In this document: positions 694-17,853 of the stretch, piece after piece
Layout of the letters: every line of letters starts with the position of its first letter
Numbering within the stretch: the first letter of the stretch is position 1
Assembly: GCA_001599295.1 (NCBI GenBank)
Contig: BCGN01000002.1
Span: 186,001 to 250,000, forward strand
From: Sporopachydermia quercuum
Lineage: Eukaryota
Direction: 5' to 3'
DNA: 64,000 nucleotides
The notes under the pieces: generated by a model
The model's database searches: none
The model's input: the letters and a program-made list of their open reading frames with translations, nothing else
What the model was told of the DNA's origin: nothing
Made by a program: the position numbers and the translations under genes

Positions 694-2210
694 TGTTATT
701 GGGTAAAATCACTGATATGTCTTTACTTTGTTTCACTTGCAATTAATCGAAGCTCTGCTGATGACGGTGAGAGGGCGTGAAATAAGACAAATTGGCTCGT
801 CTTGAAATCCACCTGATGAAGGAAGAGAACTGCAAATACTTGCGAGGCAGTAAATGGCAACAACAACTTTGCTCTCAGAGGCAATACTATTGATTGGACA
901 GGACTTGTACAGCTGTGATCTGCTTACCAAGAATCAAGATGAACCTTGAAACAATCTTTTTATTCAGCAGTAACTGATTCAGAATTGCGAAACTACTAAA
1001 ATTGCTGTATTCTGTAAGATCAAGTTCGCTAGTGTTCCTATAAGTTATTACAGCAGTATTAGTTGGCAGACACAAGTTACCAGGTAGCCTACTTTCCAGC
1101 AATAGTTCAAGTGCTGGTAAATTACCCCCAGTTATTTACCGCTAACTGACCAAACTGATTGCTAACTGATAAATCAACAAAGAGCTACCTACCTAATAAA
1201 TTATTTATTCTACGAGTAATAAACAGATACAACTACCTAAAGCACCAATCACAATATTCTGTTGCCCTTTTGATTTACCGTTTAAGTAAGTTACACATAG
1301 CAATACTGGCAGTTCAATAGATCAAATCTCAAAGCAAAAAGGAAACCTAGAAGACACTGAAAAGCCAATATTGACGAGTATGTTTATGGGTNCCACTAGT
1401 AATAGGGAAAAAGAATAGGATGTCTTTATTGGCGAGCTTCTTTTGACCGTTGCGAAAATGAATACAAATGATATACTAAGCGAACACAGAAATCCNAAAA
1501 GACTGACACAGAAATAAGGGGAGTAGAGTTTTATATCAAATAGTTTATTTGTGGTTGGAGAACTTAATTTTGAGACATCAATAAGATCGATATAGCTTGT
1601 TTTGAGAGGTTGAGAATGTAGTATATAGGGTTGGAAACAAATTTAATGGTCAACGATATTAACAATTGCTTTGCGTTGTCATTTTAATAGGGAATTTTTT
1701 ATAAAAAATGCTTCTATTTCAAGCGCACATTGAGAGCTTCGATCATTTTTGTATGTTTTCAATGGCAAATAACGTTACAGTTAAGCTTAGTTATATTATT
1801 ATTCTATATTGAGCAAAACGTTAATTCTTCTTCATAAACTTAAAACTCTTCCCTCTACATAATTGCATTTCTCGATTCCTGTCACATTATCTTTATTTTC
1901 CTTTTCCTTTCTTTTCTATTTCTTTTGAATGTCTCTACTTTCCGTCTTTGCTTTTCCTTGTAATATATCTCACATTCTACTTCTCATTATCAAGTTACGG
2001 TTTTAGCTAGTAATAGAAGGCCGCTCGTAACCATCTGCAACTTATACACAGTTTCTACCTATGTCCTACGTCTACTGATGTTCCAATTATAAATCATGCA
2101 GTGATATATATTTACCTCAGTTCTCTGCTTCCCTGTTCCACTAACTATGAAAATTGTTTCCATCCCATTTATAGCGTCCAAAAACCATCGCGAACAGACC
2201 AATCACTTCC

Positions 2211-3281
2211 TCATCTAACAGGAAATGGCATAGCTCTATGTAATCTATGAACCAGTTCCAAATAATCAGGCTCATTTTCAGGCGTTAAAACACCATGACG
2301 AATATAGAAATCAATCAAGACTAGCGCACAGTTTGGTTTGAAGTGGCCAGCGAGCATTTCTTCTTGTATTTGCTTAAATTGCATTAAATAAAACTCTTCA
2401 ACTTCGCCATCAATTGGCGTAAGTTGCATACCATTCTGGAGCTCAAGATCATATATATACTCAACTTCTGGTTGCACTTTCACTTTATAGTTCGTACTGC
2501 TAAAACCAACATCTTCAAGAGATTTAATTGGCTCCTCTTGATATATATAGGAAACAACACCAACAGGTTTGGCATTTCTTTTAACATAATCTCCATGTAA
2601 ACCAGCTTCTTCATAACACTCTTTCAGTACTGTTTGAAAAATTCCCATTCCATCACCAATACCTCCGCCAACAGTATTATCAAGCATACAGGGAAACGTA
2701 GGCTTGTCAATTGACCTCCTTGGAATCCACAGTTTTGCCTTCTCAAAATCCTCAGGTTCTAATGTGTCAGGTATATAGCCATTGACGTGAACTCCATACA
2801 TGACAAAGCCCATCAGGGGAGCCACAGCTCTTTCGATCTGTAGATATGGTACTCTATTAGGTGCAAATACTGTATACTTTTCAAATCGCCATTCGGCATC
2901 GGCGCCAGCAACTCTATAATCTCGAATTCTATCGGCAAATTGGCCCAGAGCTTCATTTCTAGCTTCGTACGTAACCAAGCTAGGATGAATAGTCAATGTT
3001 TTACTGACTGTATCTATTATTAATGGAGGTATGTTACCCTCGCTAGGGGTAAAATAATCANCTTCATCTTCATATTCATCTGTGAGAATTGCGCTGAATT
3101 CATAAATTATCCGTGGAATAACATAACCAATAACAGTACTGAGATCGTGTGTATAAAATTTATACAACTTAGAGAGTTCTTCTGACTGTTCTACTTCTAA
3201 GTTACTATAAGCAGGGAATGTGTCGACAGAGTCGACAATCTCTTTAAGGCTGGAGAATTTTTTATTAGATTTTGGAGACAT
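2211..3281 (-). CDS. Nudix hydrolase, YJR142W-like (thiamine-pyrophosphokinase-related Nudix family)
   Basis: 356-aa ORF with YGVHVNGY, LWIPRRS, PTFPCMLDNTVGGG...ECYEEAGL (Nudix box variant), QPEVEYIYDL and FKPNCALV. Confidence 0.85.
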   Translation of the reverse strand: MSPKSNKKFSSLKEIVDSVDTFPAYSNLEVEQSEELSKLYKFYTHDLSTVIGYVIPRIIYEFSAILTDEYEDEXDYFTPSEGNIPPLIIDTVSKTLTIHPSLVTYEARNEALGQFADRIRDYRVAGADAEWRFEKYTVFAPNRVPYLQIERAVAPLMGFVMYGVHVNGYIPDTLEPEDFEKAKLWIPRRSIDKPTFPCMLDNTVGGGIGDGMGIFQTVLKECYEEAGLHGDYVKRNAKPVGVVSYIYQEEPIKSLEDVGFSSTNYKVKVQPEVEYIYDLELQNGMQLTPIDGEVEEFYLMQFKQIQEEMLAGHFKPNCALVLIDFYIRHGVLTPENEPDYLELVHRLHRAMPFPVR

Positions 3282-4524
3282 ATTTTGCAGATCGGTTCTA
3301 TTAATAGAATTATATTATGGCTCTGGTTATTTTTATGTTTTGGAGCTGCTGGAAGGTCAGCTCAATAGGAAGATTCTTAGCAATTGAGAATAAAATAAAA
3401 AGAGTAAATGAAGGGAAAACAGAGGGTAGGAAGACTGCAACGATTTTTGATGTTGGGAGGAAAACTTTAAAGTTACCGCATTGTCATGCGTGTATTATGC
3501 TCTTGGGATTAAAGTGAACTTTCTACAGGAATGGTGGAGGTGCTCTGTTGATGGTAGTTCAATAGAGGAATACGAAAGGAAGGTATTAGAAAAAAGTAGT
3601 TCTTGAAATTTTTGTTCAGATAGAGATAATTTCAACTGTTTCGTAATAAGCTGATTAGATCTAAATGAACAAATACTGGACAAATAGCAAATGAAGTAGC
3701 TGCTGATTTACATTTTAAGTTCACTATTTAGTGCAATGAAAGTATTGAACTTTAATTTAATAAAAAAAAGGGAAAACAGGAGATGACTTAGTAAACAAAA
3801 TATAGTTGATATTTACAAGAAAGAAACAACACTGGTATATATATCATGCATTTGATAACGTATTGTGCTGCAATAGTACTGGCTTCAAAGATACGTTTTA
3901 ATGATATTAAATGCGCCATAGCCACNGTTGTAATTACCTTCATTAGAGTTCATAACCTTAAATTAAAACCGATTGAGTTAGTCACAACTTAATCTTTTCT
4001 CCTTCTATCTTTAACGAGAGTTTCAAGTAAATCTTCTATTTGTATCTACTATAATAGCAAAAAATTANATATTCATTATAAATTCCCTATTTGGTGCATC
4101 TATGCTGAAACCACTAGTGATATTTTGTCACTTTTTTTTATGTATGAATCTTTCTTAACTACACCTCAAAATCAACTGTTATTCAAATAAAGTTCCAAAC
4201 TTACTTTAAGCACAACGTCTTTTTACAACCTCTGATAGATACTAGATGGCTATCCTAAAGATATATTAATGATGAACCCGGAAATGATATCTTTACCATA
4301 TCCATCATTTCCGAGATATCCTTATCCTTAATATTTTTTTCTCTTCCTTTCTTTCCTTCCGAAATATATATTGTTGAGCTAGTTTTCCCACTACCCCGAC
4401 AGTTCTTTTCTTCCGAGCATTTAACATCACAAACCCAATAAAATCCTATTATAGTCTCAGATATTTGACGGGAGATCGATTGTACTTAGCAAGAACTGAA
4501 GCCAGTCGCCTATTTATTCCTTTC

Positions 4525-5042
4525 ATGTCTCGACGCCATCCTGACTTAGTTCCGTGTTTAAAGCAACCGGGAATCACGATCGGCAAATTATGTGAGAAAT
4601 GCGACGGGAAATGTCCTGTGTGTGACAGTTTGGTGAACGCTAAATCGATTGTTCGGATATGCGATGAATGCGCCTTCGGCAAAGCTGGGGAGAAATGTAT
4701 ACTTTGTGGAGGAGAGGTATGTTGAATTTTGGAAACCGTTGGATTTTTAGGGTTGGAAGTTGTAGCTGTGAAACCGGAGAACTTAGGAAGAGGGTCAACC
4801 GAGATTTAAAGTCTCTGGAACGTATTTTAATGTTCAGAGTGTCCGAAAAGGCTTACTTGAAGTTTTCTAGTATATGTACTAACAATAGCTGGTATTTACT
4901 ACAGGGAGTTTCCGATGCACATTATTGCTATGAATGTGTTCGGACCGAGAAAGACCGAGATGGGTGTCCGAAGATCATAAATATCCCGTCATCTCGGAGT
5001 GATTTGTTCTATGAGAAGCGGAAGAACAATGGGTTTCGGTGA
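4525..5042 (+). CDS. RDS3: PHF5A/Rds3 SF3b splicing factor; exons 4525..4716 and 4905..5042
   Basis: [35 protein letters not shown]...[33 protein letters not shown], joined by removing intron 4717-4904. Confidence 0.95.
4717..4904 (+). other. Spliceosomal intron (188 nt) in RDS3
   Basis: GTATGT at 4717, TACTAAC at 4877-4883, CAG at 4902-4904; phase 0, joins two overlapping ORFs into the PHF5A sequence. Confidence 0.92.
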
Positions 5043-5227
5043 AGGAAAGCGGAAATGATGGGTTGGAAGTACAAGAAATATGTAAATAAGAGTAACGTGG
5101 GAACTAATATCTGAAACAATAACGGAATAAGTAACGGAAACCAAAGCGAGGAATCTCGGAATTAATGTAATTCATCATAAACATGTATCATTTACTACGT
5201 AAATCACTATATAGAGTAATTCGTTCA

Positions 5228-8200
5228 TTAGCTCATTCTTTCTCTGCTATCCAGTAGCAGATTCCGGTTTCCTCCGTCGTTAGGAACTCGGCTCGGCTTT
5301 GAATCGGATTTAATCGGCGATACATTATTCGAGTCCATCCGAGTTTCTGCCGTAACGAATCGCTGTAATGATGTAGCTGGTGATGACGTGATCGTTAAAG
5401 GTGTTTCATTTATGGATTGGCAAAATTTTGAGTTCTTGGGGCTATTTCCTTTTGTGGGGGTCAATTCGGAAGAGTTCGGAATAAGATTAGGTTGAAGTAT
5501 ATGTATATCTTCCGCACCACAAAAGTAATCGGCTCCAGAACCAGAAGATGAACCAGAAGCTGAGGCTTTCCGAATATTTGGTTCTCTCATAGGTGATTTT
5601 TGAATAGTGGCAACGGAAGTGAAATACCGAGTTAAATCTTCAATCGGGTCCTCTTCCGATCCGGCTTCATTTTCGGACTCGCAGTCGGACTCAGGATCTG
5701 CTTCCGAGATTTCCTCTGNTATCTGTTCCGATATCTCAGAGTTGCTTAGATCTGCATTCTCCGTTTTCTCTTTATTCTCTTCGTCATTAACGTTATTTAT
5801 TTCTTCAGCTTGCGTTTGTTCCTCCTGAATCAACCCATAATCATCCGACGGTCGGGCAATAAATATATCAAACTCACAACACATGTAATTCAAGTACGCC
5901 GTAAGTCGGAATAACTTAAACCATAGCGGACACAGTCGGAGCCCTAATTGTTCCGCTGCCGAGACGATTGCCGTTTGTGTCTTAGAACTAAATGGGACAA
6001 GTATATGCAACTTCCGAGCTTCCGATATTTCATTAGCAAGAATCTTTTCCGTTTTCTCCCTATTATTAGTTAACTGCTCAATATGGGTAGATAGCCGAGC
6101 TTTGGTAGTAGCTAATTTGACTTCAAACGGATCATCACCTGCGGAAAATGTCTGTGAATCGGAAGATAACGCTTCAATAAAGTGGTTCATTGCCGCAATA
6201 TAGTTTATTAGTTTGCACCACCCTAAGATTTCTATTTCTGGCGAAGGGGCAGAAACGTCGGGACTCAAGGAAAATACTGGAGAATCTCGGGTTTTGAGGA
6301 AATGAGAGATCCCGTTTTTGTCAATGAGGACAAAACAGTTGTGTTCCGAGTTTTTCCGTGGTCGTAGACATAACATCCCGTTTGTGGGGATTGAGAAAAC
6401 AGGAGAAAATCCATCAATAGGATTCAATACGATGTTTGTTATTTTTGGCAGGGAAGTATTTTCTGTACTATAAGTATCTGACAAGTCTTCAGGAATATTA
6501 AAGTTATTTGCCATGTTTTCTGTTTTCCCTTCATTATCGTGTGGTAATATCTGTATTGTTTCCGCTATTGTTTCCTGAGCTTCCGATTCTAATTTTTGTT
6601 CGACAATACTGATGTCTGGAACTAAAGCTGTGAATTTGGCCTCATCAGTAAGTTTTTCCGTTATGACTTCCGCTTTTCCTTCAGAATGCAAAATATTTAC
6701 ACCTTGCTCAGGTTGTGCTTCCGATATATCCGTAAGTCTACTTCCACTCTCTATTTCAGTTTCGAGTATCTTTTCCGCTTTCATTTCGGTTCTTTCACCT
6801 GCTTGGGCTTCCGATTTCTTCCGAGCTATCAGATCGCATTCCTGATTTATCCGGACTATTACTGACATATCTTTAACTAAATACACGTGATCAAAACACA
6901 CTATAATTCCATATTGTCTCCATTTAAACCTTCCTGAGCGGAGTCTTTTATTTTCTCGACGATATAAAACTCCCGTTCTCACTACTTTCAATCGTATTAG
7001 CTTTTCATCGGAAACTACCGGATGAGAAATCGGTAAAATAGCTGAGACTTCCCCCGAACCTGTTCGAAGATTTAAAGTTTCTGTTTCTAATAGTGGATTA
7101 AACNTTGGTAGAGGTTTTGAGGTAGAAAACCGGAAGGGAATTAGCGGGGAGTGGATGATTTTATCCCGAAACGTTCCAAAGTCCTCATCAGCTCCGGTGT
7201 CGGTTTCATCTATCCCTAAATCATACTGGGGCTCAATCGGTAACTTGGTAGTTAAATCCGGTCGAAGTGAACTGAGCTCCTCGGACATGATTACTTCATA
7301 CGGATCAACCCAATCACGTGATAACGGCCAAGAGATCAAAGCCGAGGCTTTTCGACCCCATGTGGCACTTGAACCGAACCCATAGCCCGATGAGCCGGAA
7401 GCTGAACCAGTACCGCTAATTTCATGTGAAATTTCATCTTGACCGCTTTCATGTTTCGCTCTGACAAATGGTTTTATGATTACATTATCATAAAAACATT
7501 CAAGCATACATTTATTGACAAACTCTGATTGTGTTCCTAAACCTAATTTCACGTTCCGAACATATGCTTGTTTAGTGATTTTAGTCTTATTGTTCGGATT
7601 AAACCAATCGGTATGCAGCATCAGTAAGCTGAACGTTACTAGATGGGCATCACTTTCCGAGGCAAATATACCAGGATTACATTCAACGTATCTTTCGGAT
7701 AAACTTTCAAGGACTAAATCGATTTGTTGAGTTTCCTTCGGTAAATTTGCCCAAAGGAGAAATTTCCTCAGCGAAATATCCAACGGTTCATCCATGAAGT
7801 CAAAGAGCTGAAGGTAAAGCTGGAGACATTTTTTGATGAAAAGGGCATCTGAAGATTTAAAAACCATGGATAACTGATGCGTTCCATGCAAATCTTGCAT
7901 AACTTGCATATACTGTGCAGGAGATTGTGAAGGAGAGGGAGGGGGAAGAACTGAGCCAGAGTGCGAAGTTTCGGCCTTGCAACTTCTCCGAATTGGGTTG
8001 GCCGCCTGATCTTTATCCGAGGATGTCATTAACAGATTTCCTAATGAGGAAAGCATTCGGTTATTCTTAATCTTGCGGTCCTGGTCTAGAGATCCTACTG
8101 TTCGACTTCTCCGGCGGTTTCCGGGACTGGAAACGGTGAAGGCAGGCATTTTTTTCTTATCGGGCGAAGTCGGAGACGGCAAGGAATCACATCGGAGCAA

Positions 8201-9706
8201 TACTTCCTGTTCTAAAGGTTCCGAGACTGCTATAGATGGCCGAGGAGATGCCTTGTTGGGCGTGACCGAATTGTTCCGAAGGGCGTTAGGTTCACACTTA
8301 TTGTCCATTATCTCGCCGGGATCCGAGAGATCTCCATCATCTTCCCCGATATCGGATGACGTGGTCCGAAAAATAACCGGCAGGGATAAATCGGTATCGG
8401 AGGACGTAAACAACGAGAGTGTCCGTCGTTTGAGTTTTTGTAAGGGATTCAATGGACCAGAATTGTTCCATGCAGAGGATATAGAAGAGGATGATTTGAT
8501 CCGACGGTTCACGGGTTTTATATTAGGTTTGCTTGGCTCTGTCTCTACCCGGTTTGGTTCCTCAAACGTGATTGAAGGCACCCGATTAGAGTTATTCCGA
8601 TCGCGCATTCTAGTCATGGGTAAAGACAGTTGATCCAGTAGCGCGTCTTGTTCCTGGTCTGGTTTCATCCTTGTTCCGTTATACCCGATTGAGTAAGTTT
8701 GCGAACGAGGGCGCAGAGATGGGATGCTTCCGGGTGAAAATGGGATCACGTTTGAGTTTGATTCCCGATACGGAGTAAAATAGTCTTCCGAAAGCTCTAA
8801 ATTAGGCGAGTCCATGGGTGAATTCGGGACTGAAACAGCTGTAATTGGGTTATTTCTAGAGTTTCGCGACGGCCTGGATGCCTGGGATGTAGATCTTTTC
8901 CTCAATTCGGACGAAATCGAGAATTGTCGGCCTTTCCGATTCAACCGCTGTAAAATACCAATGGAAGATGAGTTATTGGATAATCCTGTATATGGTGAAG
9001 GATCAAGCCGAAGTTTATTGAAAAATCCGGATCGGCTTGTTCTGAGAGCTCCCGAAGAAGGTAATGCCGAGTTTCCTGGAGGTAAAGCCGAGCTTGCCGA
9101 ATTTGTTGAGTTCCCCATAACATCCTCGTTAGGAATAGGGTTTCGGCCTAAGTTCGGATCGGAACTATCATTAGGAATAACAGAATCTTCCGATTCTTTC
9201 CGACCATTCCGTTTCATTCCAAATGGCCGAAGGTTAAACCCTATTGACGACACAGACGTAGATGAGCCACTAAAATTGGAATTATTGGTACTAGACCCTA
9301 AACTAAGAATATTTGGCTGGTCTCTTTCCTGTTCGGGTTCGGGTTCCGTTTGTTTGGAGTCGCTCGTCTCAGATGCAATCGGAGGTTCAGAGGACTTTCT
9401 CCGAGATTTCCCAAATCCGAAAATTTTATAATTACCCCGCTTTGCAGTATCTGCTGTTTGTGGTAATTCCAGTAAATTGCGATCTATTGTTATTTCTACA
9501 CTATCAGTAATATCTGATTCCGAATGTTGCGAACTTCGGGATTTCTCAGACCCGAAGTTTTCCGTGGAATGTCCCATAACTCCATTTATCCCCACATCAA
9601 GTTCCGGTTTCTCTTCCGGTTCCGTCTCCGTTCCCGCAATTGAGGCCGTTCCTGAATGACCCAAAGATTTGGATCTCTTCCGAAGTCCCAATGATAGTAC
9701 CGGCAT
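5228..9706 (-). CDS. SYT1: Arf guanine nucleotide exchange factor, Sec7 domain plus PH-like domain
   Basis: Sec7 motifs FDFMDEPLDISLRKFL, LPKETQQIDLVLE and FSLLMLHTDWFNPNNKTKITK; long Ser-rich N-terminus; lies between RDS3 and YPR097W as in S. cerevisiae. First ATG is at 9706 (the ORF track starts at GTG 9727). Confidence 0.85.
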   Translation of the reverse strand: MPVLSLGLRKRSKSLGHSGTASIAGTETEPEEKPELDVGINGVMGHSTENFGSEKSRSSQHSESDITDSVEITIDRNLLELPQTADTAKRGNYKIFGFGKSRRKSSEPPIASETSDSKQTEPEPEQERDQPNILSLGSSTNNSNFSGSSTSVSSIGFNLRPFGMKRNGRKESEDSVIPNDSSDPNLGRNPIPNEDVMGNSTNSASSALPPGNSALPSSGALRTSRSGFFNKLRLDPSPYTGLSNNSSSIGILQRLNRKGRQFSISSELRKRSTSQASRPSRNSRNNPITAVSVPNSPMDSPNLELSEDYFTPYRESNSNVIPFSPGSIPSLRPRSQTYSIGYNGTRMKPDQEQDALLDQLSLPMTRMRDRNNSNRVPSITFEEPNRVETEPSKPNIKPVNRRIKSSSSISSAWNNSGPLNPLQKLKRRTLSLFTSSDTDLSLPVIFRTTSSDIGEDDGDLSDPGEIMDNKCEPNALRNNSVTPNKASPRPSIAVSEPLEQEVLLRCDSLPSPTSPDKKKMPAFTVSSPGNRRRSRTVGSLDQDRKIKNNRMLSSLGNLLMTSSDKDQAANPIRRSCKAETSHSGSVLPPPSPSQSPAQYMQVMQDLHGTHQLSMVFKSSDALFIKKCLQLYLQLFDFMDEPLDISLRKFLLWANLPKETQQIDLVLESLSERYVECNPGIFASESDAHLVTFSLLMLHTDWFNPNNKTKITKQAYVRNVKLGLGTQSEFVNKCMLECFYDNVIIKPFVRAKHESGQDEISHEISGTGSASGSSGYGFGSSATWGRKASALISWPLSRDWVDPYEVIMSEELSSLRPDLTTKLPIEPQYDLGIDETDTGADEDFGTFRDKIIHSPLIPFRFSTSKPLPXFNPLLETETLNLRTGSGEVSAILPISHPVVSDEKLIRLKVVRTGVLYRRENKRLRSGRFKWRQYGIIVCFDHVYLVKDMSVIVRINQECDLIARKKSEAQAGERTEMKAEKILETEIESGSRLTDISEAQPEQGVNILHSEGKAEVITEKLTDEAKFTALVPDISIVEQKLESEAQETIAETIQILPHDNEGKTENMANNFNIPEDLSDTYSTENTSLPKITNIVLNPIDGFSPVFSIPTNGMLCLRPRKNSEHNCFVLIDKNGISHFLKTRDSPVFSLSPDVSAPSPEIEILGWCKLINYIAAMNHFIEALSSDSQTFSAGDDPFEVKLATTKARLSTHIEQLTNNREKTEKILANEISEARKLHILVPFSSKTQTAIVSAAEQLGLRLCPLWFKLFRLTAYLNYMCCEFDIFIARPSDDYGLIQEEQTQAEEINNVNDEENKEKTENADLSNSEISEQIXEEISEADPESDCESENEAGSEEDPIEDLTRYFTSVATIQKSPMREPNIRKASASGSSSGSGADYFCGAEDIHILQPNLIPNSSELTPTKGNSPKNSKFCQSINETPLTITSSPATSLQRFVTAETRMDSNNVSPIKSDSKPSRVPNDGGNRNLLLDSRERMS

Positions 9707-10663
9707 TATACCTAAATGGGAAATCACTAGATCATTGATTTAAGCTTCCAAGATGTACCAACCTAAACTGTTCCGAGATTCTCCGAGATCTTTTCCGTTC
9801 TATACTCTTTCTCCATCGACCACGACCACGATCAATGGTTCAATTACTATGCAAATGACGTTGGGGTCAACGATACACAAATTATAACACCAGAGTCTTC
9901 TCACAGTTAGGACTTCGACAAAAAACAGCGAGACTTAATAATCAACTCAAGTGATAGTGTCTTCTCCATTATTTATCGCTGATTGTTGGCAAATTTCCGT
10001 TAATATTGCGTGAAAGAGTTGATAAACGCTGTGCCAGGTGTTCAGTGAAGGAAGAAAAATCATGGTTTCCGAAATATTTGAGGGGTTGAGAATATAATAT
10101 CCGGTTTGTCTCGGTTCGGTTTCCGGACTGATGATGAAAGGGATGGTTTTGAAGACTAATACAGTTTATGGTTTGCACTAAAATCAAATATAGTTAGAGT
10201 TTAGTAAACTTTATTTTAAAGTCGAAACCTTATATCTTGGTTCGTGTCGCAAAAAATTAATTGTAAGGGAGGAAGTCTTCTTTCTTCTCTTTGTGTGATA
10301 TCAATTGGTATTCATCAGCAAGTATAATGGATTAGGAACAGAAGAAGGAATGAATGTTTGTTTAGAATAAATAAACACGGAACGGAAGAACTCGGAAAGG
10401 TCGGCTCTTTGGTTTTTGTATTGAAGTTGTCTAAATTGGGATTATATCTGAATTGTTAGCAGTTTGTCCTTTCTGAAGGCAAATAACTATTGAAAAGTAA
10501 TTTTGGTAGATCGGGGAAGACGGTGATTATTACTGAAATAGCATCGGTAGGGAAGCTAGCAAAAGATACATTTCCGATTTTTTGGGGCGGAGCGGAACCG
10601 ATTCTCTAGTTGATTTATTTTGTTACACTTTTGGCAATCTGATTCACACATAATATCAGCGGA

Positions 10664-13600
10664 ATGGAGATCTCCACTGAGTCCACGGACCCCCCTAATT
10701 CTGTCACGTCAGTAAAGCTTAGCTCGCTTCAACAGCATTATTTAAAGCGGGAATTGCTCACAATCAAGCTTGATGAGGAACTAGCGGCATTATCGGATGA
10801 TTTGTCCCTTCGGAAATTTGGATTTCCTTTCAATAGCTTTGGGGTAAACGTAATGAGGAAATCACGTATATTTCATAAGTCACAAAAAATAGACAGACCG
10901 GANAAGGTATTGGATCTTTCGTCCTATTCGGAATCTAAATCGAATGCCGATTCCGATAACATTTCCCATACTATCTGTCAAGACGGAAGACATTCAGCTG
11001 TATCTTCTCCGCTTAGGAAACTCTCAAGCGAATCAGCCCGCAAATCAGCGCAAAAAGAAAGCCTTGTTGCAGCTTCGGATTCGGCTTCAGTTTCGGTCCC
11101 CGTCTCCGCTTTATCTACGAGCTTATTTTCGGCAGCTTCTAGTAGCTCGAGCGTATATTACATCTCTTCAGATTACGATTTCCATCTTCTCCGCTTTTGC
11201 TTCGACAACTTCCTACTAACATTTCCCTTTATTGCAAAGTCGAAGGACTCTCTACTGCTTTTCCATAATATTCAGCAGTTCTGGGAAGATTTCTCGGATA
11301 GAGAAATTAGCGGATCAGATGATCGGCTGGAAGCTACCAAACGGAAGAAGATTGCGCAGAAGTTGAAACGATTCCTGCTTATAATTCTATCCTCTGGTAT
11401 TCCGACAGTCGGAGATTCAGCATTAACCTCTTTTGACCGGCAGACGGCTCGGCTGGCTTCAGGATTAGAGGCTGCGGATGATTCTGGAAATAAGCCAGCT
11501 ACAGTTGCCGAGGTGAAACTGCAAGCTACTAGTTTTTCCGCTAGTAAAACTTTGATTAGCAATAGTGTATGGCAGCCACATTATATTAACGGAATAGACG
11601 TGAATATTTGTGGAGTCCGGAAGCGGAAGACGGATAGAACTGACAGTATAATGAAATCACTAACTCTGGGGCTTCGATCTAAGCCAAAGCAGAAGTATGA
11701 ATTTCTGGTCCGGAGTCAAATGAAAGGTGGACCGGAATGTTTCGTATGGCGTACTTATGCCGATTTCCGACAATTGGATCGAGTCTTGCGGAAGGACTTC
11801 CCGAGCTTGAAAATTAGCCGATTACCGGCAAATTTGACCGGTTCAAGTTCCCATTCAGGTAAAGTGAGCGGGGGCAAACAGAGTGTGGATTTACAAAGCT
11901 CAAATTCGGCCATTTTCCCCGATTTTAACAAAAGTATTGATACGAAGGATTCTGTAGCCCTTACAGACGCGGACACAGATACGGAATTAGATCTTGATGA
12001 GGATCTTGAATCCGATTCGGACACGGAAGCAGGAAATACGGCAGTCAAACTCCCGAGAGAAAAACAACGTTTATCGCTTCGAGCATATCTCCGAAATCTT
12101 ATTAACTCTAAACGGCTTGCAATGTCCAAACCCTTTTTAGAGTTTCTGTTCAAAGATAAAGTATTCGGAAGCTTAACTACTTCTGAGCTTAAGGATATGC
12201 AAATGAGGAAACAAACTGACCTAATTCGGATAGAGAACGAATTAGAGTTTCAACGTATAACTAAAGAAAAGTCTTTAGAGCTCCAAACACTTATGGAGTC
12301 GTTTAAATCTACCATTTTGGAATCACCTTCGGGAATCAAAACCTTATTTGCGGAGTTTAAAACCTGCGCCACAATTTCCGAATGCAGTAAACTCGTACAA
12401 GGTTTCCTCCAATGGTGCAAAATCGAAGTGGCTGCTACTTTATATCAACTATTCTTATCTAACGACAATAGTGAAGAACTATTCAACCAAATCCGAACTA
12501 TCCATCGGTTAATGCCATACGGATTACTCAAAAACGTGCTGAAAATTACAAATCCGGTTGCTATGATGAAAGGCGTAATGGATCTGTTTTTAGCGCAGCC
12601 GTTTGGAGGGAAATCGATGCTACAAGCTGTGTTCGGAATGGTTTTAAATGACGACATCCGAGCTCAGACGGGATTACTCAAAACATTAGAAGCTCGGATT
12701 CAATACCGGGAGATAGTTTGGAAGTTGCAAACAGAGATCCCCAAGATTTGGGACGGAACTTCCGAAGGGAAGGCCCGGAAAGAAAAGCTGCACTTGTATT
12801 GTGAAGAGAACAAATGTGATATGATTGTGGCAATTTTAAATGAACATATCGGAGCCGGAAACGGAAAAGGAAATGATTGCAGTAAAGACCAAATCGGGCA
12901 AATGGCTTGGCGTTTATTCCGAAACTGGAAAAAAGAGCTTGAAAAGAAAACCGGAGATGACACCACTCGCTCCAGAAACTATCCCTATTCTAAAGACCCA
13001 GAAGATTACTCTAACATCAAATTATACTATCAATTATTAGTTCGCAGACAAGATAAAAATGCAATGAAAGCTATTTGGTATGAACCATTTCTTATCTCCG
13101 TTATTAAAGAAATTTTCATCATTTTCTATGAGCCTCTCATCTCCGTTTTCCAAGATGCTAAAGTATATGAAGCAATTGAAGATTTCCGTAGTTTTATGAA
13201 CGATTTCATCTTTACTATACGAAAAATCAAAAATGGAACAATTTATTATGAGGCAAATATCGGAAGAATCAACTCTGAACTCATTGGATTGCTAGATAGA
13301 CATATGAATGATATTGTGAAGTTTATTCATAGGGTTTATGCTAATGACAAGACAGGATTTTTTGATGATTTGCTGCAATGGCTGAATATTATTCTGCATT
13401 ATATAAAATACAGCAAAGGACAGGTTATTTTTGATATAGAAAGCGTTGTAAATAGAAGTATTGCTGAAGGAAAGATAAGCGGAGAGAGGATTACGGAGAC
13501 AATAGATGATATAATTTTCTATTGTCAAGCAAAACNGACAATATATGAAGATAGACAAAACGGAAATAGTTTGAAGAAAGGGGGTGTGTCTGGAGATATT

Positions 13601-14011
13601 TCTGGGAATGACAATGGAAATGGAAATTCCATTGTTGCAAAAGGCTGGGAAGAGGCGGGAATGGATAAGCTGTTAGCAGGAACTATAAAAGCAGCAGATT
13701 TAGGTTTAAACGACCTGGACCTGTATGATTTGGATTGGGTGGAAGAAAATAACGAGTCAGATGATAAAGAAGAAGAACAACAAGTGGAGGAGTTGCTGGC
13801 AGGGGGAGAAGGCGGAAAGGATGTCCATAAACGGGTAATGGAGCTGGAACGGAGAAGATTAGGTAGNCGGAGGAAAGAGGAAACGAAGAGAAAAGCAATA
13901 GAAAATCGGGAATTATTGAAAAATTCTCTTATGGAAGAGTTTAATAAGGAATTACGGAGACTATTAAGTTCTGAAAACGACCTGATGAAAGAGTTTATTA
14001 TGCAAGAATGA
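10664..14011 (+). CDS. LEC1: PX-domain protein, YPR097W/Lec1 family
   Basis: QQHYLKRELL N-terminus, PX domain (VWRTYADFRQL...LPREKQRLSLRAYLR), HRLMPY...LFLAQPFGGKSMLQ; syntenic with SYT1. Confidence 0.8.
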   Translation: MEISTESTDPPNSVTSVKLSSLQQHYLKRELLTIKLDEELAALSDDLSLRKFGFPFNSFGVNVMRKSRIFHKSQKIDRPXKVLDLSSYSESKSNADSDNISHTICQDGRHSAVSSPLRKLSSESARKSAQKESLVAASDSASVSVPVSALSTSLFSAASSSSSVYYISSDYDFHLLRFCFDNFLLTFPFIAKSKDSLLLFHNIQQFWEDFSDREISGSDDRLEATKRKKIAQKLKRFLLIILSSGIPTVGDSALTSFDRQTARLASGLEAADDSGNKPATVAEVKLQATSFSASKTLISNSVWQPHYINGIDVNICGVRKRKTDRTDSIMKSLTLGLRSKPKQKYEFLVRSQMKGGPECFVWRTYADFRQLDRVLRKDFPSLKISRLPANLTGSSSHSGKVSGGKQSVDLQSSNSAIFPDFNKSIDTKDSVALTDADTDTELDLDEDLESDSDTEAGNTAVKLPREKQRLSLRAYLRNLINSKRLAMSKPFLEFLFKDKVFGSLTTSELKDMQMRKQTDLIRIENELEFQRITKEKSLELQTLMESFKSTILESPSGIKTLFAEFKTCATISECSKLVQGFLQWCKIEVAATLYQLFLSNDNSEELFNQIRTIHRLMPYGLLKNVLKITNPVAMMKGVMDLFLAQPFGGKSMLQAVFGMVLNDDIRAQTGLLKTLEARIQYREIVWKLQTEIPKIWDGTSEGKARKEKLHLYCEENKCDMIVAILNEHIGAGNGKGNDCSKDQIGQMAWRLFRNWKKELEKKTGDDTTRSRNYPYSKDPEDYSNIKLYYQLLVRRQDKNAMKAIWYEPFLISVIKEIFIIFYEPLISVFQDAKVYEAIEDFRSFMNDFIFTIRKIKNGTIYYEANIGRINSELIGLLDRHMNDIVKFIHRVYANDKTGFFDDLLQWLNIILHYIKYSKGQVIFDIESVVNRSIAEGKISGERITETIDDIIFYCQAKXTIYEDRQNGNSLKKGGVSGDISGNDNGNGNSIVAKGWEEAGMDKLLAGTIKAADLGLNDLDLYDLDWVEENNESDDKEEEQQVEELLAGGEGGKDVHKRVMELERRRLGXRRKEETKRKAIENRELLKNSLMEEFNKELRRLLSSENDLMKEFIMQE

Positions 14012-14257
14012 TTATGAATTCCGAAATATGTATATATAAGTTAGAGCAGACGAATGAATTGTTTGAAAATTATACATAATTCCGCAGATAATAAGAATAA
14101 AGATAAATTGATGATGATAGTGTGAAAACGGACACTTGATATACGTTGGAAATGATATGATCATCCAGTTATGAATTATTAACACAGTTTGCTTTTACTG
14201 AGAATCCGCTATATCTTTTCCATTCTGTACTTTTTAACAATTGTTTCCCCGTTCTCA

Positions 14258-15065
14258 CTAATCGATACTCATCTCTGTTCGCTGAAGTAAGCTCCTTTTC
14301 TGCTCCAACATGATAAACTCTTGTTTTTGATCGATAGTGCTCTTTATCCGATCACGCAATCCTACTAAGGTACCGAGAACGGTTCGGTTAATTCCGGCTC
14401 CCTCTTCCGATCCCGCTATGTTCTCCGCTTTATCTTTTGCCTGTAATGATAGATTATAACTGAATTGGGAGATTTCCTTTTTCAGTAACTTTTCCCGTGA
14501 TTTTAGATGCCTTTGTGGATTTGGCTTATTCCTCGCTTCAGGAGCAACAAACTTGTTGTCCTGTTTTCCCGCTTCGGCTTCACTTTTGAGTTCACTTGGC
14601 AATTCCGATATTAGATCGGACAAATTTGTGTTAAGGTTGCCCCTCTTTTTCTTCTTCAGTCGTCGCAAACTTGATTTGGATATTTGTTGTCCTTGATGGC
14701 CCTCGGTGGCTAATTTCTGCAAAAATGATTCCTTCTTCGTGTCGTTTTTCTCCTTTTTGGTCTCCTTTTTCTGTCGGAGATACTCATTATGGGCTGATAA
14801 TGACTCTAGAATGTCCTTTTGTAACCTTTCTCCAGATTTGGACAAAATTCCTGAGCTCCCCGCTTTAGAGGCCGATTTGAGCTTGCTTCCTGCTTTAGCT
14901 CTTAAAGAAGCCGATTTCTTGATAGCCTGGGAGAGGTTTTATTAGTAAGATTATCAGGAAGCGGAATAATTTGGAACGGATAAAAATAGAGAATCCTGAA
15001 TTTGTTTGGAATGAAAAAAGAAAAGCGGAACTTTCAATAGTGAAAATGTGTCGGATACTTACCAT
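14258..15065 (-). CDS. SLX9: Ribosome biogenesis factor Slx9; exons 15065..15063 (ATG only) and 14926..14258
   Basis: ATG|GTAAGT...TACTAAT...CAG|GCT gives MAIKKSASLRAKAGSKL, in frame with the 195-aa ORF; basic ISKSSLRRLKKK...LSDLISELP segment; PAC/RRPE motifs upstream. Confidence 0.75.
14927..15062 (-). other. Spliceosomal intron (136 nt) immediately after the SLX9 start codon
   Basis: Donor GTAAGT at 15062, branch TACTAAT at ~14947-14941, CAG ending at 14927. Confidence 0.85.
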
Positions 15066-15277
15066 TATGTGATGACTGTTCAGTAGATAGATAGTCTTGT
15101 GTTTGTGGACGATTTAAATAGTTACTGATTATCTAACCAAAATATATTAGGTGGAGCAACTTCGAAAAGATACAGAAAAGTAATACCGTTTTGTCAACAG
15201 ACAAAATGTGATGCACAAGGATAGTAAATGATAGTAAGTGAATAGATATTAGAAGTTTTGTTTGATAGTAATAAACA

Positions 15278-15328
15278 GAAATTTTTATATCAAGGAAGGA
15301 AGGAAGGTGTAGAAAATATGATGAGATG
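15278..15328. promoter_or_regulatory. RRPE-like and PAC-like elements upstream of SLX9
   Basis: GAAATTTTT at 15278-15286 and GATGAGATG at 15320-15328, typical of ribosome-biogenesis promoters. Confidence 0.55.
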
Positions 15329-16061
15329 CAATGTTAGAATGAAATGGACGGAGACCTGAGAGCGAAATCTGATGATNTAAACAAAATATCTGATACTGGG
15401 GGTATGCAGGAGCTAATTGGAGAAAGTAATGATCAGAGTGTTGAAAGTGTGTTTTTATTGGCTTGGGGGCAGTTGAAAATCAAGGAACACATGCAATTCA
15501 CAACTTAATCTGTAAGGAAATATTTTGGGATCTGTTTTGCTCTATTCGATAATAAATTCCTTATTACAGCGACTCTTGCAAATATCAATACAAGCGAGTA
15601 GAATATTTCTGTAACCAATAATTCACTCAGGTCAATGTTCGCTTAAGTTTTCTTGGTTTAGTTCAAACTGGGTGCTCAGACCCTTTCTTAAAGTTCACTT
15701 TTTGATACTTCGTACCACAAGGTGAAAAGTTTATTTCTATGCAGGCATTCAACCAATTGCAATCTAGTAATTGATAATCATAATCAAATTGTCTGATGAA
15801 TTCGTTACAAGACCTGTAAGAAAAACAATGGAAATACAACAAATAGTTGTTAATAAACAGTTCTAATGACTCTAGAACAGAGTCTTCGCCTTTCAGAACA
15901 TTCTAGAGCATTCGAACGTGTTCGCAATTGAGTATCTACTACTAATCATACGATTCATACTGTTCTCTCTCTTTGTCTACACCAAGGAAAAAGTTGCTAA
16001 ATGCGTTGTATGTTGTATTTATTATACTTCATACATAACTTTTTTTATATAGAATCAAAAT

Positions 16062-17168
16062 CTACTCTTCTTGTTCATCCAAAGTCTTAAACTCCCAAGG
16101 AACACTATTAGGTCCAAATGGAACATTCAATTCCAACAATCTGGCAAAGGCATCGGCGAACACTTTGAAGAAATAGTCATTATCATTGGCAAATTTAACA
16201 ACTGACTTCTTGAATTCCTTATCCTGAATTAAAGCATAGTCCGCTGGAAGCATCATTAAAGACTTAGTTTTTACATCTTCATATTGAGCAGGACCATCCC
16301 ATTTCCTCCATTGCCATTTCTCATTTAATAGTAAAGTGTAGAAATCATTAGTGAAGGTAGTTGGTGAGAACGTCCATGGTCCTTGATATCCAGAGTTCTC
16401 TGGATGACATCTACCTAAACAATGAGCACCAATTAAGGCAACAATTTCTTCATCATTGAATCCCATACGATAAAATACATCACGAATGTGTTTGGATCCT
16501 TGTGAGGCATCTGGTAATCTTCCTCTTGGTGGTGAATTGGTTTCATCTAAATCAACTCTGCCTGGTCTCCATTTGATCTTGGGACCTGCCATTTCTTGAA
16601 CTGCTACAACACCACCTAATGTCCACAAATCTCCGTGCGATAAAAATGGGAATTCTTTGATGAAAGGTTCTAAAAATACTCTTCCGTGTTCCAATCCATT
16701 GTTTGCTGGATCTTTTCCTTCTTGTTCAAATCTCATAGTGCCACCGAATGAACCACCCGTACGCGTAGCTTTATCGTAGGTACCAGAAGAATGCCATGCA
16801 AGTCTCACGAGATTTGGACCATAAGAACCATCATCAAAGTCATCTACATCAATCAATTTTTTAGCAATCGCATTGTAAGCTTCCTGATAGTCCTCGTAGG
16901 TAGCTGGTCCTTTGCTGGCAGACTTTTCCGTGGAGTTCGAATTGGTATAGTAATAGTAGCCACCAGCTGCTGCTGCTGCTCCTAGCAAAATAAAAACCAA
17001 CCCGTTGGATGATTTTGGTTCTTTGGATGCTGTAGAGTAGTTTCTGCAGCTTTTATTGAATCTAGTGGTAGGTTTAAATGCTTGCCTCACTCGAGTTTGA
17101 GCAAGTCTGACAGTGGGGACCATTCTAGGTCTTAGCCCTGTGTTGCTTCTAATGACTCTGAATGCCAT
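16062..17168 (-). CDS. CCP1: Mitochondrial cytochrome c peroxidase
   Basis: Arg-rich presequence and TM segment; class I heme peroxidase motifs YGPNLVRLAWHSSGTYD, ALIGAHCLG, SGYQGPW, LMMLPADYAL. Confidence 0.95.
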   Translation of the reverse strand: MAFRVIRSNTGLRPRMVPTVRLAQTRVRQAFKPTTRFNKSCRNYSTASKEPKSSNGLVFILLGAAAAAGGYYYYTNSNSTEKSASKGPATYEDYQEAYNAIAKKLIDVDDFDDGSYGPNLVRLAWHSSGTYDKATRTGGSFGGTMRFEQEGKDPANNGLEHGRVFLEPFIKEFPFLSHGDLWTLGGVVAVQEMAGPKIKWRPGRVDLDETNSPPRGRLPDASQGSKHIRDVFYRMGFNDEEIVALIGAHCLGRCHPENSGYQGPWTFSPTTFTNDFYTLLLNEKWQWRKWDGPAQYEDVKTKSLMMLPADYALIQDKEFKKSVVKFANDNDYFFKVFADAFARLLELNVPFGPNSVPWEFKTLDEQEE

Positions 17169-17722: not shown

Positions 17723-17853
17723 TTACTCAGCTATAGGCAGACAGGTTCATTGAGGACATCAAGCAATTATAAAAGATGGATTGTATTAAGGGTTGGCAGC
17801 TTTTGATTATAATGTCAGAAACTGAAATGGCCAGATTGAAATGTCCTTAGTAA
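17723..17853. promoter_or_regulatory. Candidate Yap1-type response elements upstream of CCP1
   Basis: TTACTCA at 17723-17729 and TTAGTAA at 17847-17853, 550-690 bp upstream of an oxidative-stress gene. Confidence 0.35.

Follow-up and report, generated by a model that had tools for sequence, protein, structure and literature searches.

Genes and CCG-Rich Segments

The trinucleotide CCG and its complement CGG (together, sites) occur in two states of density across the window, which is the whole 64-kb stretch of DNA that was analyzed. Segments were placed by an unsupervised two-state HMM on CCG+CGG, and the high state occupies 19.5 of the 64 kb in at least four segments. The segments and associated genes are as follows.

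4278–15052 (unstranded): high-CCG segment 1 (HMM), with RDS3, a Sec7-domain gene, a PX/DUF3818 gene, SLX9, and their introns and spacers
4527–5042 (+): RDS3/PHF5-like gene with one intron (about 4708–4903); Pfam PHF5 in both exon frames
5228–9706 (−): Sec7-domain gene, 1492 aa (Pfam Sec7, 2.9e-26); "SYT1-like" is the name used in the earlier note
9707–10663 (unstranded): divergent Sec7/PX spacer of intermediate density, with site-free gaps at 9795–9997 and 10124–10378
10664–14011 (+): PX/PXB/DUF3818 gene (YPR097W-like), 1115 aa (Pfam)
14258–15065 (−): SLX9 (Pfam SLX9), in which the ATG is followed at once by an intron (15062–14926) and then by exon 2
29013–29548 (unstranded): high-density patch in the 5′ half of NOB1, counted by position, as it is too short for the HMM
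30271–34386 (unstranded): high-CCG segment 2 (HMM), with the convergent genes SGT1 (+; Pfam SGS/CS/TPR) and ASE1/MAP65 (−; Pfam MAP65_ASE1)
34387–35468 (unstranded): low-state gap (HMM), the core of the ASE1/WHI5-like divergent promoter
35469–36666 (unstranded): high-CCG segment 3 (HMM), the first 1.2 kb of a WHI5-like transcription unit
50202–53621 (unstranded): high-CCG segment 4 (HMM), an F-box/UIM gene and 640 bp downstream
50158–52980 (+): the F-box/UIM gene (UFO1-like; Pfam F-box, UIM)

Segment 1 contains 372 sites (34.5 per kb), and segments 2, 3, and 4 contain 139, 43, and 121 sites (33.8, 35.9, and 35.4 per kb, respectively), so that the four densities are nearly equal. The remainder of the window has 4.6–9.7 CCG+CGG per kb, and sites are about fourfold denser in high-state genes, including exons, introns, and flanks, than in neighboring genes. 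About 671–672 sites lie in the 19.5 kb of high-state DNA, one per 29 bp. Between 4270 and 15060, the low-state rate of the window predicts 90.5 sites in place of the 372 found (Poisson P 2e-108), and relative to local base composition each 1-kb interval of 4001–15000 has an observed/expected ratio of 1.5–2.3, compared with 0.3–0.8 in the flanking intervals.

The earlier note had described one regional domain from RDS3 to SLX9 at 4270–15060. These limits fall within 8 bp of the HMM edges (4278 and 15052), and the hand counts in the note hold: 11 sites at 5581–5765 (~10 by hand), 26 at 8041–8400 (~20), 8 in the 1107-bp CCP1 ORF (~8), and 11 in the 1596-bp ALO1 ORF (~10). The regional excess is upheld and proves larger than the note had described, but it does not form a single domain: at least three further segments of the 64 kb share its state, the edges are mostly at gene starts (six of eight), and one inner divergent promoter core is in the low state.

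Within segment 1, the Sec7-domain gene carries 183 sites (40.9 per kb), the PX gene 106 (31.7 per kb, with a less dense final 1 kb), and the RDS3/PHF5-like gene 21 in 516 bp; the RDS3 intron has 5 sites in 196 bp. The SLX9 intron, where the sequence runs ATG|GTAAGT ... TACTAAT ... CAG from the start codon onward, has 4 in 137 bp, and the divergent spacer at 9707–10663 has 23 in 957 bp (observed/expected 1.96). The NOB1 patch has 16 sites in 536 bp, compared with 6 in 28374–29012, and stops within the ORF. The final 325 bp of the WHI5-like ORF (Pfam Whi5 match weak, with an E value of 3.4e-4, below the cut-off) contain no sites, and segment 4 ends in a dense cluster at 53291–53621. Genes in the low state include DRE2, a Zn2Cys6 gene, a NUDIX gene, and ALO1.

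Segment Edges and Gene Starts

The edges of the segments are step-like. Of the eight HMM edges, six fall between −249 and +44 bp relative to a start codon, with start codons standing in for transcript ends and with a test interval of −250 to +50 set post hoc, when the offsets had already been seen. The other two are at 36666, in the WHI5-like ORF, and at 53621, with no known gene nearby. Gene bodies are filled with sites, and promoter cores such as 34387–35468 (4.6 per kb, with 5 sites over 1082 bp) and 3970–4277 are nearly devoid of them; just upstream of the edges, at least 300 bp are free of sites. Density drops from 5′ to 3′ in the PX, UFO1-like, WHI5-like, NOB1, and ABC genes.

Independence from Coding Sequence, Base Composition, and Assembly

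The excess is a feature of the DNA itself: exons, introns, and spacers all share it, and it is present on either strand and in every frame, as the earlier note had seen. The further statement of the note, that codon choice alone is insufficient, is borne out by the refuting tests it proposed: the excess survives correction for GC, amino-acid composition, and codon usage. With the amino-acid sequence fixed and codon usage pooled, the two large genes of segment 1, Sec7 and PX, have 1.75 and 1.74 times the expected number of sites (z 8.7 and 6.1), CCP1 has 0.34 times and ALO1 0.37 times, and the excess is 1.57–1.75-fold in five of six genes. Even when the codons of each gene are kept, an excess of 20–29% persists in five of six. 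Pieces of non-coding DNA in segment 1 whose limits are independent of the HMM (the RDS3 intron, 5043–5227, 9707–10663, and 14012–14257) have 20–26 sites per kb, compared with 6.1 in 25.1 kb of low-state non-coding DNA, and CCG+CGG observed/expected is 2.2 in high-state non-coding DNA and 1.4–2.1 in high-state genes.

In high-state genes only, the word also spans codon borders: there, NCG codons are 2.3–3.2-fold commoner before G (three of four families, p 0.0003–0.005), and C-ending codons are 2.3-fold commoner before GGN (p 3e-7). From the low to the high state, the share of Pro CCG rises from 0.05–0.09 to 0.30 and that of Arg CGG from 0.06 to 0.32, an odds shift of about 4–5-fold per site.

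The interval 1–20000 is present in a single contig, with 0 differences, in each of the sequencing runs X1 and X2, which come from separate studies; the high-CCG stretch is thus real DNA. Neither run contains a second haplotype of at least 80% likeness over 1–20000; runs X4 and X5, from other organisms, gave short stray matches only. The window contains no dispersed repeats of at least 30 bp, only trivial tandem repeats, and no tRNA or Rfam families, and its 17 single N positions have no association with CCG contexts. An origin in assembly or sequencing error, in repeats, or in the local GC, codon usage, or amino-acid makeup of the genes is scarcely credible; the greater abundance of Ser, Glu, Asp, and Arg in high-state proteins and the stronger use of T-ending codons in some low-state genes would agree with it, but the excess persists with amino acids fixed or codons kept and extends into introns and spacers, repeats of either kind do not account for it, and a comparable CCG pattern is absent from 45 other fungal loci (top 1-kb observed/expected 1.55, compared with 2.54 here).

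A metagenome scan with an ALO1 alignment yielded 80 fungal loci, which serve as composition controls only and include none with a UFO1 orthologue; a separate metagenome scan, with the PX protein, turned up no relative. The best match of the PX protein is 31–35% identical (seven matches) and that of ALO1 61%, and a close relative was not found. A full-text literature search found no description of CCG/CGG-rich gene bodies or domains in a yeast, which is not proof of absence.

Word Specificity and Dinucleotide Balance

The rise in CpG is confined to CCG/CGG, and its best context is TTCCGA (TCGGAA on the other strand). Observed/expected is 3.0 in the high and 0.75 in the low state for CCGA, and 1.77 and 0.69 for CCGG, whereas ACGA, ACGT, GCGA, GCGC, and TCGA are at 0.40–0.70 in both states. 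For CpG as a whole, the ratio is 1.06 in coding and 1.11 in non-coding high-state DNA, compared with 0.61 and 0.63 in the low state, and by gene it is bimodal (0.38–0.70 in 11 low-state genes; 0.73–1.25 in eight high-state genes). CpA/TpG moves the other way, from 1.18 (coding) and 1.12 (non-coding) in the low state to 0.88 and 0.90 in the high state. Per kb, the CpG gain is 18.6 in non-coding and 24.1 in coding DNA, and the CpA/TpG loss, pooled over strands, is 10.6 and 16.5, where 9.3 and 12 would supply the gain. The loss is distributed across all contexts. No one-step neighbor of CCG, TCCGA, or TTCCG is depleted enough to be the source of the added sites: per kb, CAG/CTG falls by 2.1 and CCA/TGG by 3.5, whereas CCG rises by 26.

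General composition changes little. GC is 0.41 in the high state and 0.36 in the low state. The C share of two-fold Y sites is 0.356 in high genes, 0.333 in low regulatory genes, and 0.340 in low metabolic genes, and the G share of two-fold R sites is 0.328, 0.348, and 0.322, respectively. GpC observed/expected is lower in the high state (0.67–0.87, compared with about 1.0), and TpA is 0.74–0.86 in both states. Repeat-induced point mutation, which acts on duplicated sequence and produces an excess of TpA at the expense of CpA, or a process resembling it, was considered and rejected, with no repeats of at least 30 bp in the window and TpA the same in both states.

Spacing, Flanks, and Strand

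Of the 672 in-state sites, 51% have T at −1, 44% have T at −2, and 47% have A at +1; the corresponding figures for the 372 sites outside the high state are 35%, 37%, and 33%. Same-strand pairs are in excess at 10 bp (30, with 11 expected; z 6.0) and at 12 bp (32, with 14.5 expected; z 5.1), with the consensus TTCCGA-N4-TTCCGA; these 62 pairs are among several hundred neighboring pairs. Gaps of 6 bp or less are scarce (1–11%, compared with 18–20% expected). The only periodicity is the 3-base coding period, with none at 10–11 bp or 150–200 bp. The sense strand carries 267 CCG and 322 CGG, and 73 TCCGA and 76 TCGGA.

Origin of the CCG-Rich State

Compositional states on the kb scale are usually put down to methylation decay, GC-biased conversion, repeats, or foreign origin, and the present pattern failed every test run for these; no known process explains the CCG-rich state. 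Foreign ancestry, classical GC-biased conversion, and methylation all fit poorly. Under foreign ancestry, segments from a CCG-rich yeast lineage would have replaced resident copies through hybridization, introgression, or homeologous gene conversion. The two discrete states, their step-like edges, and the edges within ORFs (the NOB1 patch and the 3′ end of the WHI5-like gene) agree with replacement, and as recombination in yeast tends to begin in promoters, it could set edges near gene starts. Such an origin is nevertheless unlikely: the two states match outside CCG/CGG-linked words (two-fold GC, other CpG contexts, TpA), the low-state promoter core of 1.08 kb would require two extra exchanges in one spacer, runs X1 and X2 contain no second haplotype of at least 80% likeness over 1–20000, and the CCG excess of the donor would itself need a cause. 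Less probable still, and very unlikely, is classical GC-biased conversion centered on recombination hotspots close to the 5′ ends of genes, a mechanism that has been proposed for the GC3-rich gene classes of grasses and their 5′-to-3′ gradients. It would account for edges by gene starts, several 5′-to-3′ declines, and the slight rise in GC, and the strength of the effect is that of a weak fixation bias; but synonymous G+C at two-fold sites is not raised, GpC falls, CpGs rise only in the CCG context, and the expected zone of breaks upstream of the edges is site-free for at least 300 bp. A methylation mosaic, in which most of the genome would be CpG-methylated and decaying and the high-state segments would be unmethylated islands, like the CpG islands of animals or the classes of genes set apart by gene-body methylation, is slightly less likely again. 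Bimodal CpG ratios among genes, the reciprocal CpA/TpG change, a pattern that follows transcription units, and a raised CpG ratio over several hundred bp are all as it predicts, whereas sparing is not seen in all contexts: CpGs outside CCG show the same depletion in the two states, a result that decay through methylation cannot produce, and CCG is above expectation (observed/expected 1.9–3.0) rather than just spared. Moreover, according to a review, 5mC methyltransferases have been lost from Saccharomycotina, with none detectable (PMC13297926), in agreement with the earlier note on budding yeasts.

The earlier note had offered a mutational/repair signature or a chromatin/DNA-binding code, and the data cannot separate the two: the former is favored by observed/expected ratios that do not differ between coding and non-coding DNA and by a gain of CpG that TpG/CpA loss offsets, and the preferred same-strand spacings of 10 and 12 bp favor the latter. 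A selected binding code is a close rival to fixation bias and is possible, with the chances against it. A CCG-reading DNA-binding protein, of Zn2Cys6 or similar type, would coat the bodies of a subset of genes, and weak selection on motif density would maintain TTCCGA words all through their transcription units, often in pairs that lie on the same strand at a distance of one helical turn. Zn2Cys6 factors recognize CGG/CCG half-sites that are set a fixed distance apart, in some cases arranged as direct repeats. The preference for T at −2, T at −1, and A at +1, same-strand TTCCGA-N4-TTCCGA pairs at two to three times expectation, mutual avoidance within 6 bp, undepleted precursor words, and the gene-specific pattern all speak for such a code. 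We know of no factor array near one site per 29 bp over 19.5 kb, and this density is far above that of known arrays; the sites occur throughout gene bodies and are avoided in promoter cores, which are the usual place of action for factors of this type; unconstrained DNA does not exceed coding DNA in observed/expected; long-range 10-bp and nucleosome-scale periodicity are absent; the reciprocal CpG/TpG shift has no obvious place in such a code; and the short-gap deficit may simply stem from a 6-bp word. A methylation-free "CCG island" system is a comparably doubtful possibility, in which a CCG-reading factor would mark whole transcription units of a subset of genes and drive, or be served by, the word; in the former case, the factor would make the word accumulate by biasing how T:G mismatches are repaired in the C_G context.

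Fixation bias in place is tentatively preferred, with a probability somewhat short of even. The data directly show the two states, their restriction to one word, their independence from coding, and the location of their edges; we infer that a long-acting bias for CCG is tied to certain transcription units, and that the high state would be the equilibrium footprint of this weak, context-specific pressure, favoring CpG flanked as 5′-CCG-3′. CCG may be gained on balance from CTG/CAG and CCA/TGG, lost more slowly, or both. The bias would set in at the start codon, or a short way upstream of it, and extend over exons, introns, and the short spacers of convergent genes, and non-transcribed promoter cores and neighboring genes would escape it. 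The likeliest agent would be a repair or mutation activity that recognizes the CCG context and is linked either to the transcription of these genes or to a stable state of their chromatin. A function-blind pressure fits the finding that, within each state, coding DNA does not differ from non-coding DNA in observed/expected, and the pairing of CpG gain with CpA/TpG loss points to a shifted CpG/TpG transition balance. Also in support of fixation bias are the discrete states of like density, the change in CCG only with no general GC shift, the word that crosses codon borders, edges near start codons, the low-state promoter core, and the 5′-to-3′ declines. Against it, depletion is too small in any single precursor word, the CpA/TpG loss extends to all contexts, and the 10- and 12-bp spacings and the short-gap deficit are not predicted by pure mutation or repair bias. 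Transcription-coupled processes usually give strand asymmetry, and the sense-strand counts given above are nearly balanced. Two of eight edges are off gene starts and the NOB1 patch ends mid-ORF, and the bias does not account for the choice of genes, which passes over DRE2, the Zn2Cys6 gene, the NUDIX gene, and ALO1.

Comparison with Known Systems

The signal consists of one trinucleotide, its edges are step-like and close to gene starts, and cytosine methylation is reported to be absent from the group of organisms in which it occurs. If a context-specific repair bias is its cause, the locus would display a eukaryotic counterpart of bacterial very-short-patch repair that acts on chosen genes. 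A binding code would make it a new type of gene-body code, and a "CCG island" would be a new type of chromatin state written into the sequence, in which a DNA word reinforces itself across gene bodies. In either case, the locus is well suited to clean tests, as adjacent genes of opposite state lie a few hundred bp apart and the contrast can be scored genome-wide from sequence alone.

Vertebrate CpG islands, which are read by CpG-binding zinc-finger proteins, are likewise kb-scale and CpG-rich, with sharp edges by gene starts; they are promoter-centered, exceed 50% GC, and include all CpG contexts, whereas the present segments leave out promoter cores, have a GC of 0.41, and involve CCG words only. 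In E. coli, very-short-patch repair (Vsr with Dcm) inflates CCWGG-related words. It converts T:G to C:G in a specific context and raises one short word, and is thus the kind of agent that fixation bias needs, but it is bacterial, genome-wide, and linked to a methyltransferase, whereas the present signal is in domains. Zn2Cys6 (Gal4-type) sites, which are CGG/CCG half-sites at fixed spacing, share the core triplet, and same-strand distances near one helical turn are favored here; known sites of this type are few, site-specific, and in promoters, whereas here 671 sites are spread through 19.5 kb of gene bodies and promoter cores are empty.

Gene-body methylation, reported to give bimodal CpG observed/expected among the genes of the honeybee and other invertebrates (PMC2975444), also distinguishes a subset of genes by CpG, with reciprocal TpG/CpA and the gene body as the unit; there, 5mC decay lowers all CpG contexts, whereas here only CCG/CGG changes, and it lies above expectation. 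A further comparison is with GC-biased gene conversion domains and the 5′-to-3′ compositional gradients of plant genes (PMC3148226); these gradients are base-content shifts, whereas here two-fold GC is unchanged and one trinucleotide carries the signal. As at the present locus, composition in plants changes along the direction of transcription in exons and introns, genes form two classes, and a weak force acts on coding and non-coding DNA alike (PMC3148226).

Segments of High CCG Density in the Window

The dense CCG/CGG that the earlier note had described from RDS3 to SLX9 is borne out by counts of CCG plus CGG occurrences (sites): 11 lie in 5581–5765 and 26 in 8041–8400, and the low comparators hold (8 sites in the peroxidase ORF, 11 in ALO1). 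The ratio of observed sites to those expected from local base composition (obs/exp) is 1.5–2.3 in the 1-kb windows of 4001–15000 vs 0.3–0.8 on either side. A two-state HMM with site positions alone as input assigns 4278–15052 to a high state, with 372 sites (34.5 per kb) where 90.5 are expected at the low-state rate (P 2e-108). The left edge is step-like, a single site in 3282–4277 being followed by 7 within the next 250 bp. The domain proposed earlier at 4270–15060 is confirmed as this segment, but the pattern is wider, as three further segments share the state.

Further high-state segments called by the HMM
30271–34386: 33.8 sites per kb
35469–36666: 35.9 sites per kb
50202–53621: 35.4 sites per kb

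The high state totals 19,509 bases with 671 sites and the remaining 44,491 bases hold 373, the five low-state stretches having 4.6–9.7 sites per kb. Within the 5′ half of NOB1, 29013–29548 (16 sites in 536 bp) is high-state-like and below the length that the HMM can call. All compositional results refer to 64 kb from one genome.

Gene Content

The window (G+C 37.7%, with 17 isolated N positions) carries a budding-yeast gene set, as judged from ORF-based gene models and Pfam matches.

Genes in order along the window (basis: Pfam/ORF, or ORF only for the ORF without a Pfam family)
NUDIX gene
RDS3/PHF5 gene, one intron
Sec7-domain gene
PX/PXB/DUF3818 gene
SLX9, intron immediately 3′ of the ATG
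Cytochrome-c-peroxidase-type gene
Zn2Cys6 factor
DRE2
NOB1
SGT1
ASE1
WHI5-like gene, weak match
Sugar transporter
ORF without a Pfam family
ALO1
Cytochrome-b5-reductase-type gene
F-box/UIM gene
Split hydrolase gene
PDR-type ABC transporter

The labels SYT1, YPR097W, CCP1, CBR1, and UFO1 are presumptive, coming from the earlier note or from S. cerevisiae gene order rather than from a sequence match. The high-state genes are RDS3, Sec7, PX, SLX9, SGT1, ASE1, the WHI5-like gene, and the F-box gene; every other gene is low or intermediate. In the protein collection searched, the top named homologue of ALO1 (Pachysolen) is 61% identical and the PX protein has 7 matches altogether, at only 31–35% identity, which makes this a budding yeast without a close relative in that collection. 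At 15055–15065 (minus), the apparent exon 1 of SLX9 consists of the ATG only, with GTAAGT following at once; the 137 bp intron has its 3′ end beyond a TACTAAT branch site.

Other features of the window
3–470, minus: start of a glycosyl-hydrolase family 18 (chitinase-type) gene, cut by the window's left end
22644–26508 (3.9 kb) and 36992–41585 (4.6 kb): gene-free stretches, of unusual length for budding yeast
43905–45332, minus: 475-aa ORF, low state, convergent with the sugar transporter gene, no Pfam family
53291–53621: CCG cluster with 16 sites in 331 bp, the densest in the window, between the F-box gene stop and the hydrolase gene 3′ end
53786–56464, minus: Hydrolase_4 serine-hydrolase gene, apparently in several ORF pieces, low state, adjoining a high-state segment

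The split ORF pieces of the Hydrolase_4 gene suggest more than one intron. The densest cluster may represent a small transcription unit that is not annotated; its sole ORF (53294–53533, minus, 79 aa) lacks a Pfam family. Both gene-free stretches lack ORFs of at least 120 aa, tRNAs, Rfam families, and repeats, and two short ORFs tested, one from each, had no Pfam match. Single N bases are spaced at roughly 3.8 kb on average in the high and low states alike (e.g., 1392, 5719, 13867, 62967), perhaps from masking of ambiguous or heterozygous calls; the contexts of all 17 show no link to CCG.

Word Specificity and Spacing of Sites

CCG/CGG stands out among trinucleotides (obs/exp 1.87 inside vs 0.72 outside), and those ranked next (CGA/TCG, GGA/TCC, GAA/TTC) are its flanks. 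Several of the counts, including the word, CpG-context, and TTCCGAA tallies, use provisional limits set by eye, which extend a little beyond those of the HMM. Inside and outside values are 3.0 and 0.75 for CCGA/TCGG, 1.77 and 0.69 for CCGG, 1.30 and 0.78 for CCGC, and 1.20 and 0.69 for CCGT. The rise is limited to CpG contexts with CCG or CGG, and ACGA, ACGC, ACGT, GCGA, GCGC, and TCGA are flat (0.34–0.70 inside, 0.47–0.62 outside). Inside, the sites (n = 672) are flanked by T (44%) and T (51%) before CCG and by A (47%) after it, the frequencies at the matching positions outside (n = 372) being 37%, 35%, and 33%. Counting TTCCGAA together with its complement TTCGGAA gives 35 occurrences inside (about 21 kb) and 2 outside (about 43 kb).

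As the earlier note had stated, the excess is on both strands and in all frames: on the sense strand, CCG per kb in the three frames is 5.1, 7.4, and 3.6 inside and 1.2, 2.8, and 1.5 outside, and CGG is 5.8, 8.3, and 5.4 inside and 0.9, 2.4, and 3.0 outside. The sense strand of the eight high genes has 267 CCG and 322 CGG, and 73 TCCGA and 76 TCGGA. In these genes, TCG, ACG, and GCG are 2.3–3.2 times commoner ahead of G, and C-ending codons 2.3 times commoner ahead of GGN (p 3e-7); low genes have no effect of the next codon on synonymous choice.

No periodicity was found in the sites except the coding period of 3. Gaps between sites are near random (CV 0.71–1.06), with those of 6 bp or less scarce (1–11% vs 17–20% expected). 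Same-strand pairs are in excess at two spacings, 10 bp (30 vs 11.1 expected; z 6.0) and 12 bp (32 vs 14.5 expected; z 5.1). The consensus of the 10-bp pairs is TTCCGA-N4-TTCCGA, with A following the first CCG in 23 of 30.

Segment Edges and Gene Starts

Six of the eight HMM edges lie at −249 to +44 bp from a start codon, taken as a proxy for the transcript start.

Offsets of segment edges from start codons
RDS3: −249 bp
SLX9: +13 bp
SGT1: −213 bp
ASE1: −208 bp
WHI5-like gene: −170 bp
F-box gene: +44 bp

The share of the window equally near one of the 19 start codons is 8.9% (P 1.2e-5, for a range picked after the offsets were seen). The other two edges lie within the WHI5-like ORF, 325 bp short of its stop, and 641 bp beyond the F-box gene stop, where no gene is recognised. 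A search for a sequence common to the edges found none. The 1.08-kb core of the divergent ASE1/WHI5 promoter is low-state (5 sites), and the divergent Sec7/PX spacer has intermediate density with two site-free gaps of 200–250 bp. Density declines 3′-ward in the PX, F-box, WHI5-like, NOB1, and ABC genes, and does not in the Sec7 gene and ASE1.

Persistence of the Excess Under Controls

Five checks show that the excess is neither artefactual nor a side effect of something else. Over positions 1–20000, two sequencing runs from different studies each give one contig with 0 differences, and at most one is independent, as either may have supplied the assembly; their contigs contain no second diverged copy of this region at 80% likeness or more. 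The window has no dispersed repeats of at least 30 bp and no relevant tandem repeats.

The earlier note had named disappearance of the excess on correction for composition as one finding that would count against it; the excess persists with GC, amino-acid, and codon-usage correction. When codons are sampled from usage pooled over all 16 ORFs and the encoded protein is kept unchanged, five of six high-state ORFs have 1.57–1.75 times the expected sites (z 2.7–8.7), the WHI5-like ORF 1.14 times, and ten low-state ORFs 0.25–0.87 times. Shuffling a gene's codons among its synonymous positions leaves a 20–29% surplus in five of six high genes (z 2.2–4.6), which puts part of the excess at codon junctions. 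In non-coding DNA, site density is 26 per kb in the high state (obs/exp 2.2) vs 6.1 in the low state (0.65; 25.1 kb), a comparison that is circular for flank pieces, whose limits the HMM itself set, and not for the five internal pieces (the RDS3 intron, 5043–5227, 9707–10663, 14012–14257, and 31669–31880), which total 39 sites over 1796 bp. A further 4 sites fall in the 137 bp of the SLX9 intron.

An outside control comprised 45 fungal metagenome loci of at least 8 kb around ALO1 homologues, from 80 retrieved. The top 1-kb obs/exp is 2.54 in the window vs 1.55 across these loci, and the variance/mean of 500-bp counts is 6.0 in the window (controls: median 1.6, maximum 5.4).

Origin of the High State

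The difference from the rest of the window is confined to CCG/CGG-linked words. Two-fold synonymous-site GC and TpA obs/exp are equal in both states, and within each state dinucleotide obs/exp is similar in coding and non-coding DNA (respectively, in the high state, CpG 1.06 and 1.11, CpA/TpG 0.88 and 0.90, GpC 0.87 and 0.67; in the low state, CpG 0.61 and 0.63, CpA/TpG 1.18 and 1.12, GpC 1.01 and 1.02). The loss of CpA/TpG numerically suffices for the CpG gain, and no one-step precursor of CCG is singly depleted enough to be its source. The high state is a property of double-stranded DNA, blind to coding, and has persisted for so long that all segments have come to a similar level.

Three familiar origins fit this poorly. 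If the segments were of foreign ancestry, the donor would hardly be expected to equal the host in all other composition, and extra exchanges would be needed to leave the promoter core in the low state when the genes on both sides are in the high state. Classical GC-biased conversion is at odds with the unchanged two-fold-site GC and the lower GpC. Methylation decay does not account for non-CCG CpGs being depleted equally in both states, nor for CCG exceeding expectation; a review (PMC13297926) also reports that 5mC enzymes are absent from the budding yeasts' subphylum. What remains is an in-place process favouring the CCG word itself. The CCG share of Pro codons is 0.30 in high genes vs 0.05–0.09, and the CGG share of Arg codons 0.32 vs 0.06; by our own arithmetic these shares would imply a shift of about 4–5-fold in per-site odds, a size that would be typical of weak fixation bias.

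We tentatively favour, at somewhat less than even chances, a context-specific repair or mutation bias that would raise the CCG word in place and would be coupled, in certain genes, to their chromatin or transcription, because coding and non-coding DNA reach equal obs/exp, CpG shifts reciprocally to TpG/CpA, and segments begin at gene starts. A close rival, in itself rather unlikely, is a selected code for a CCG-reading protein, for which the flank preference around sites and the 10- and 12-bp same-strand spacing speak. Repair bias and binding code could belong to a single system, provided that the CCG-reading protein skews repair as well.

Comparison With Known Systems

In full-text searches of literature largely outside the subscription journals, no account of a comparable yeast state was found, and one may have been published before. 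The pattern is like that of vertebrate CpG islands and of the gradients in composition that follow the direction of transcription in plant genes (PMC3148226), and it lacks a defining feature of each. The CpG bimodality of invertebrate gene bodies likewise resembles the high/low pattern, which lacks a feature that defines it. The agent that the favoured repair or mutation bias would require resembles bacterial very-short-patch repair.
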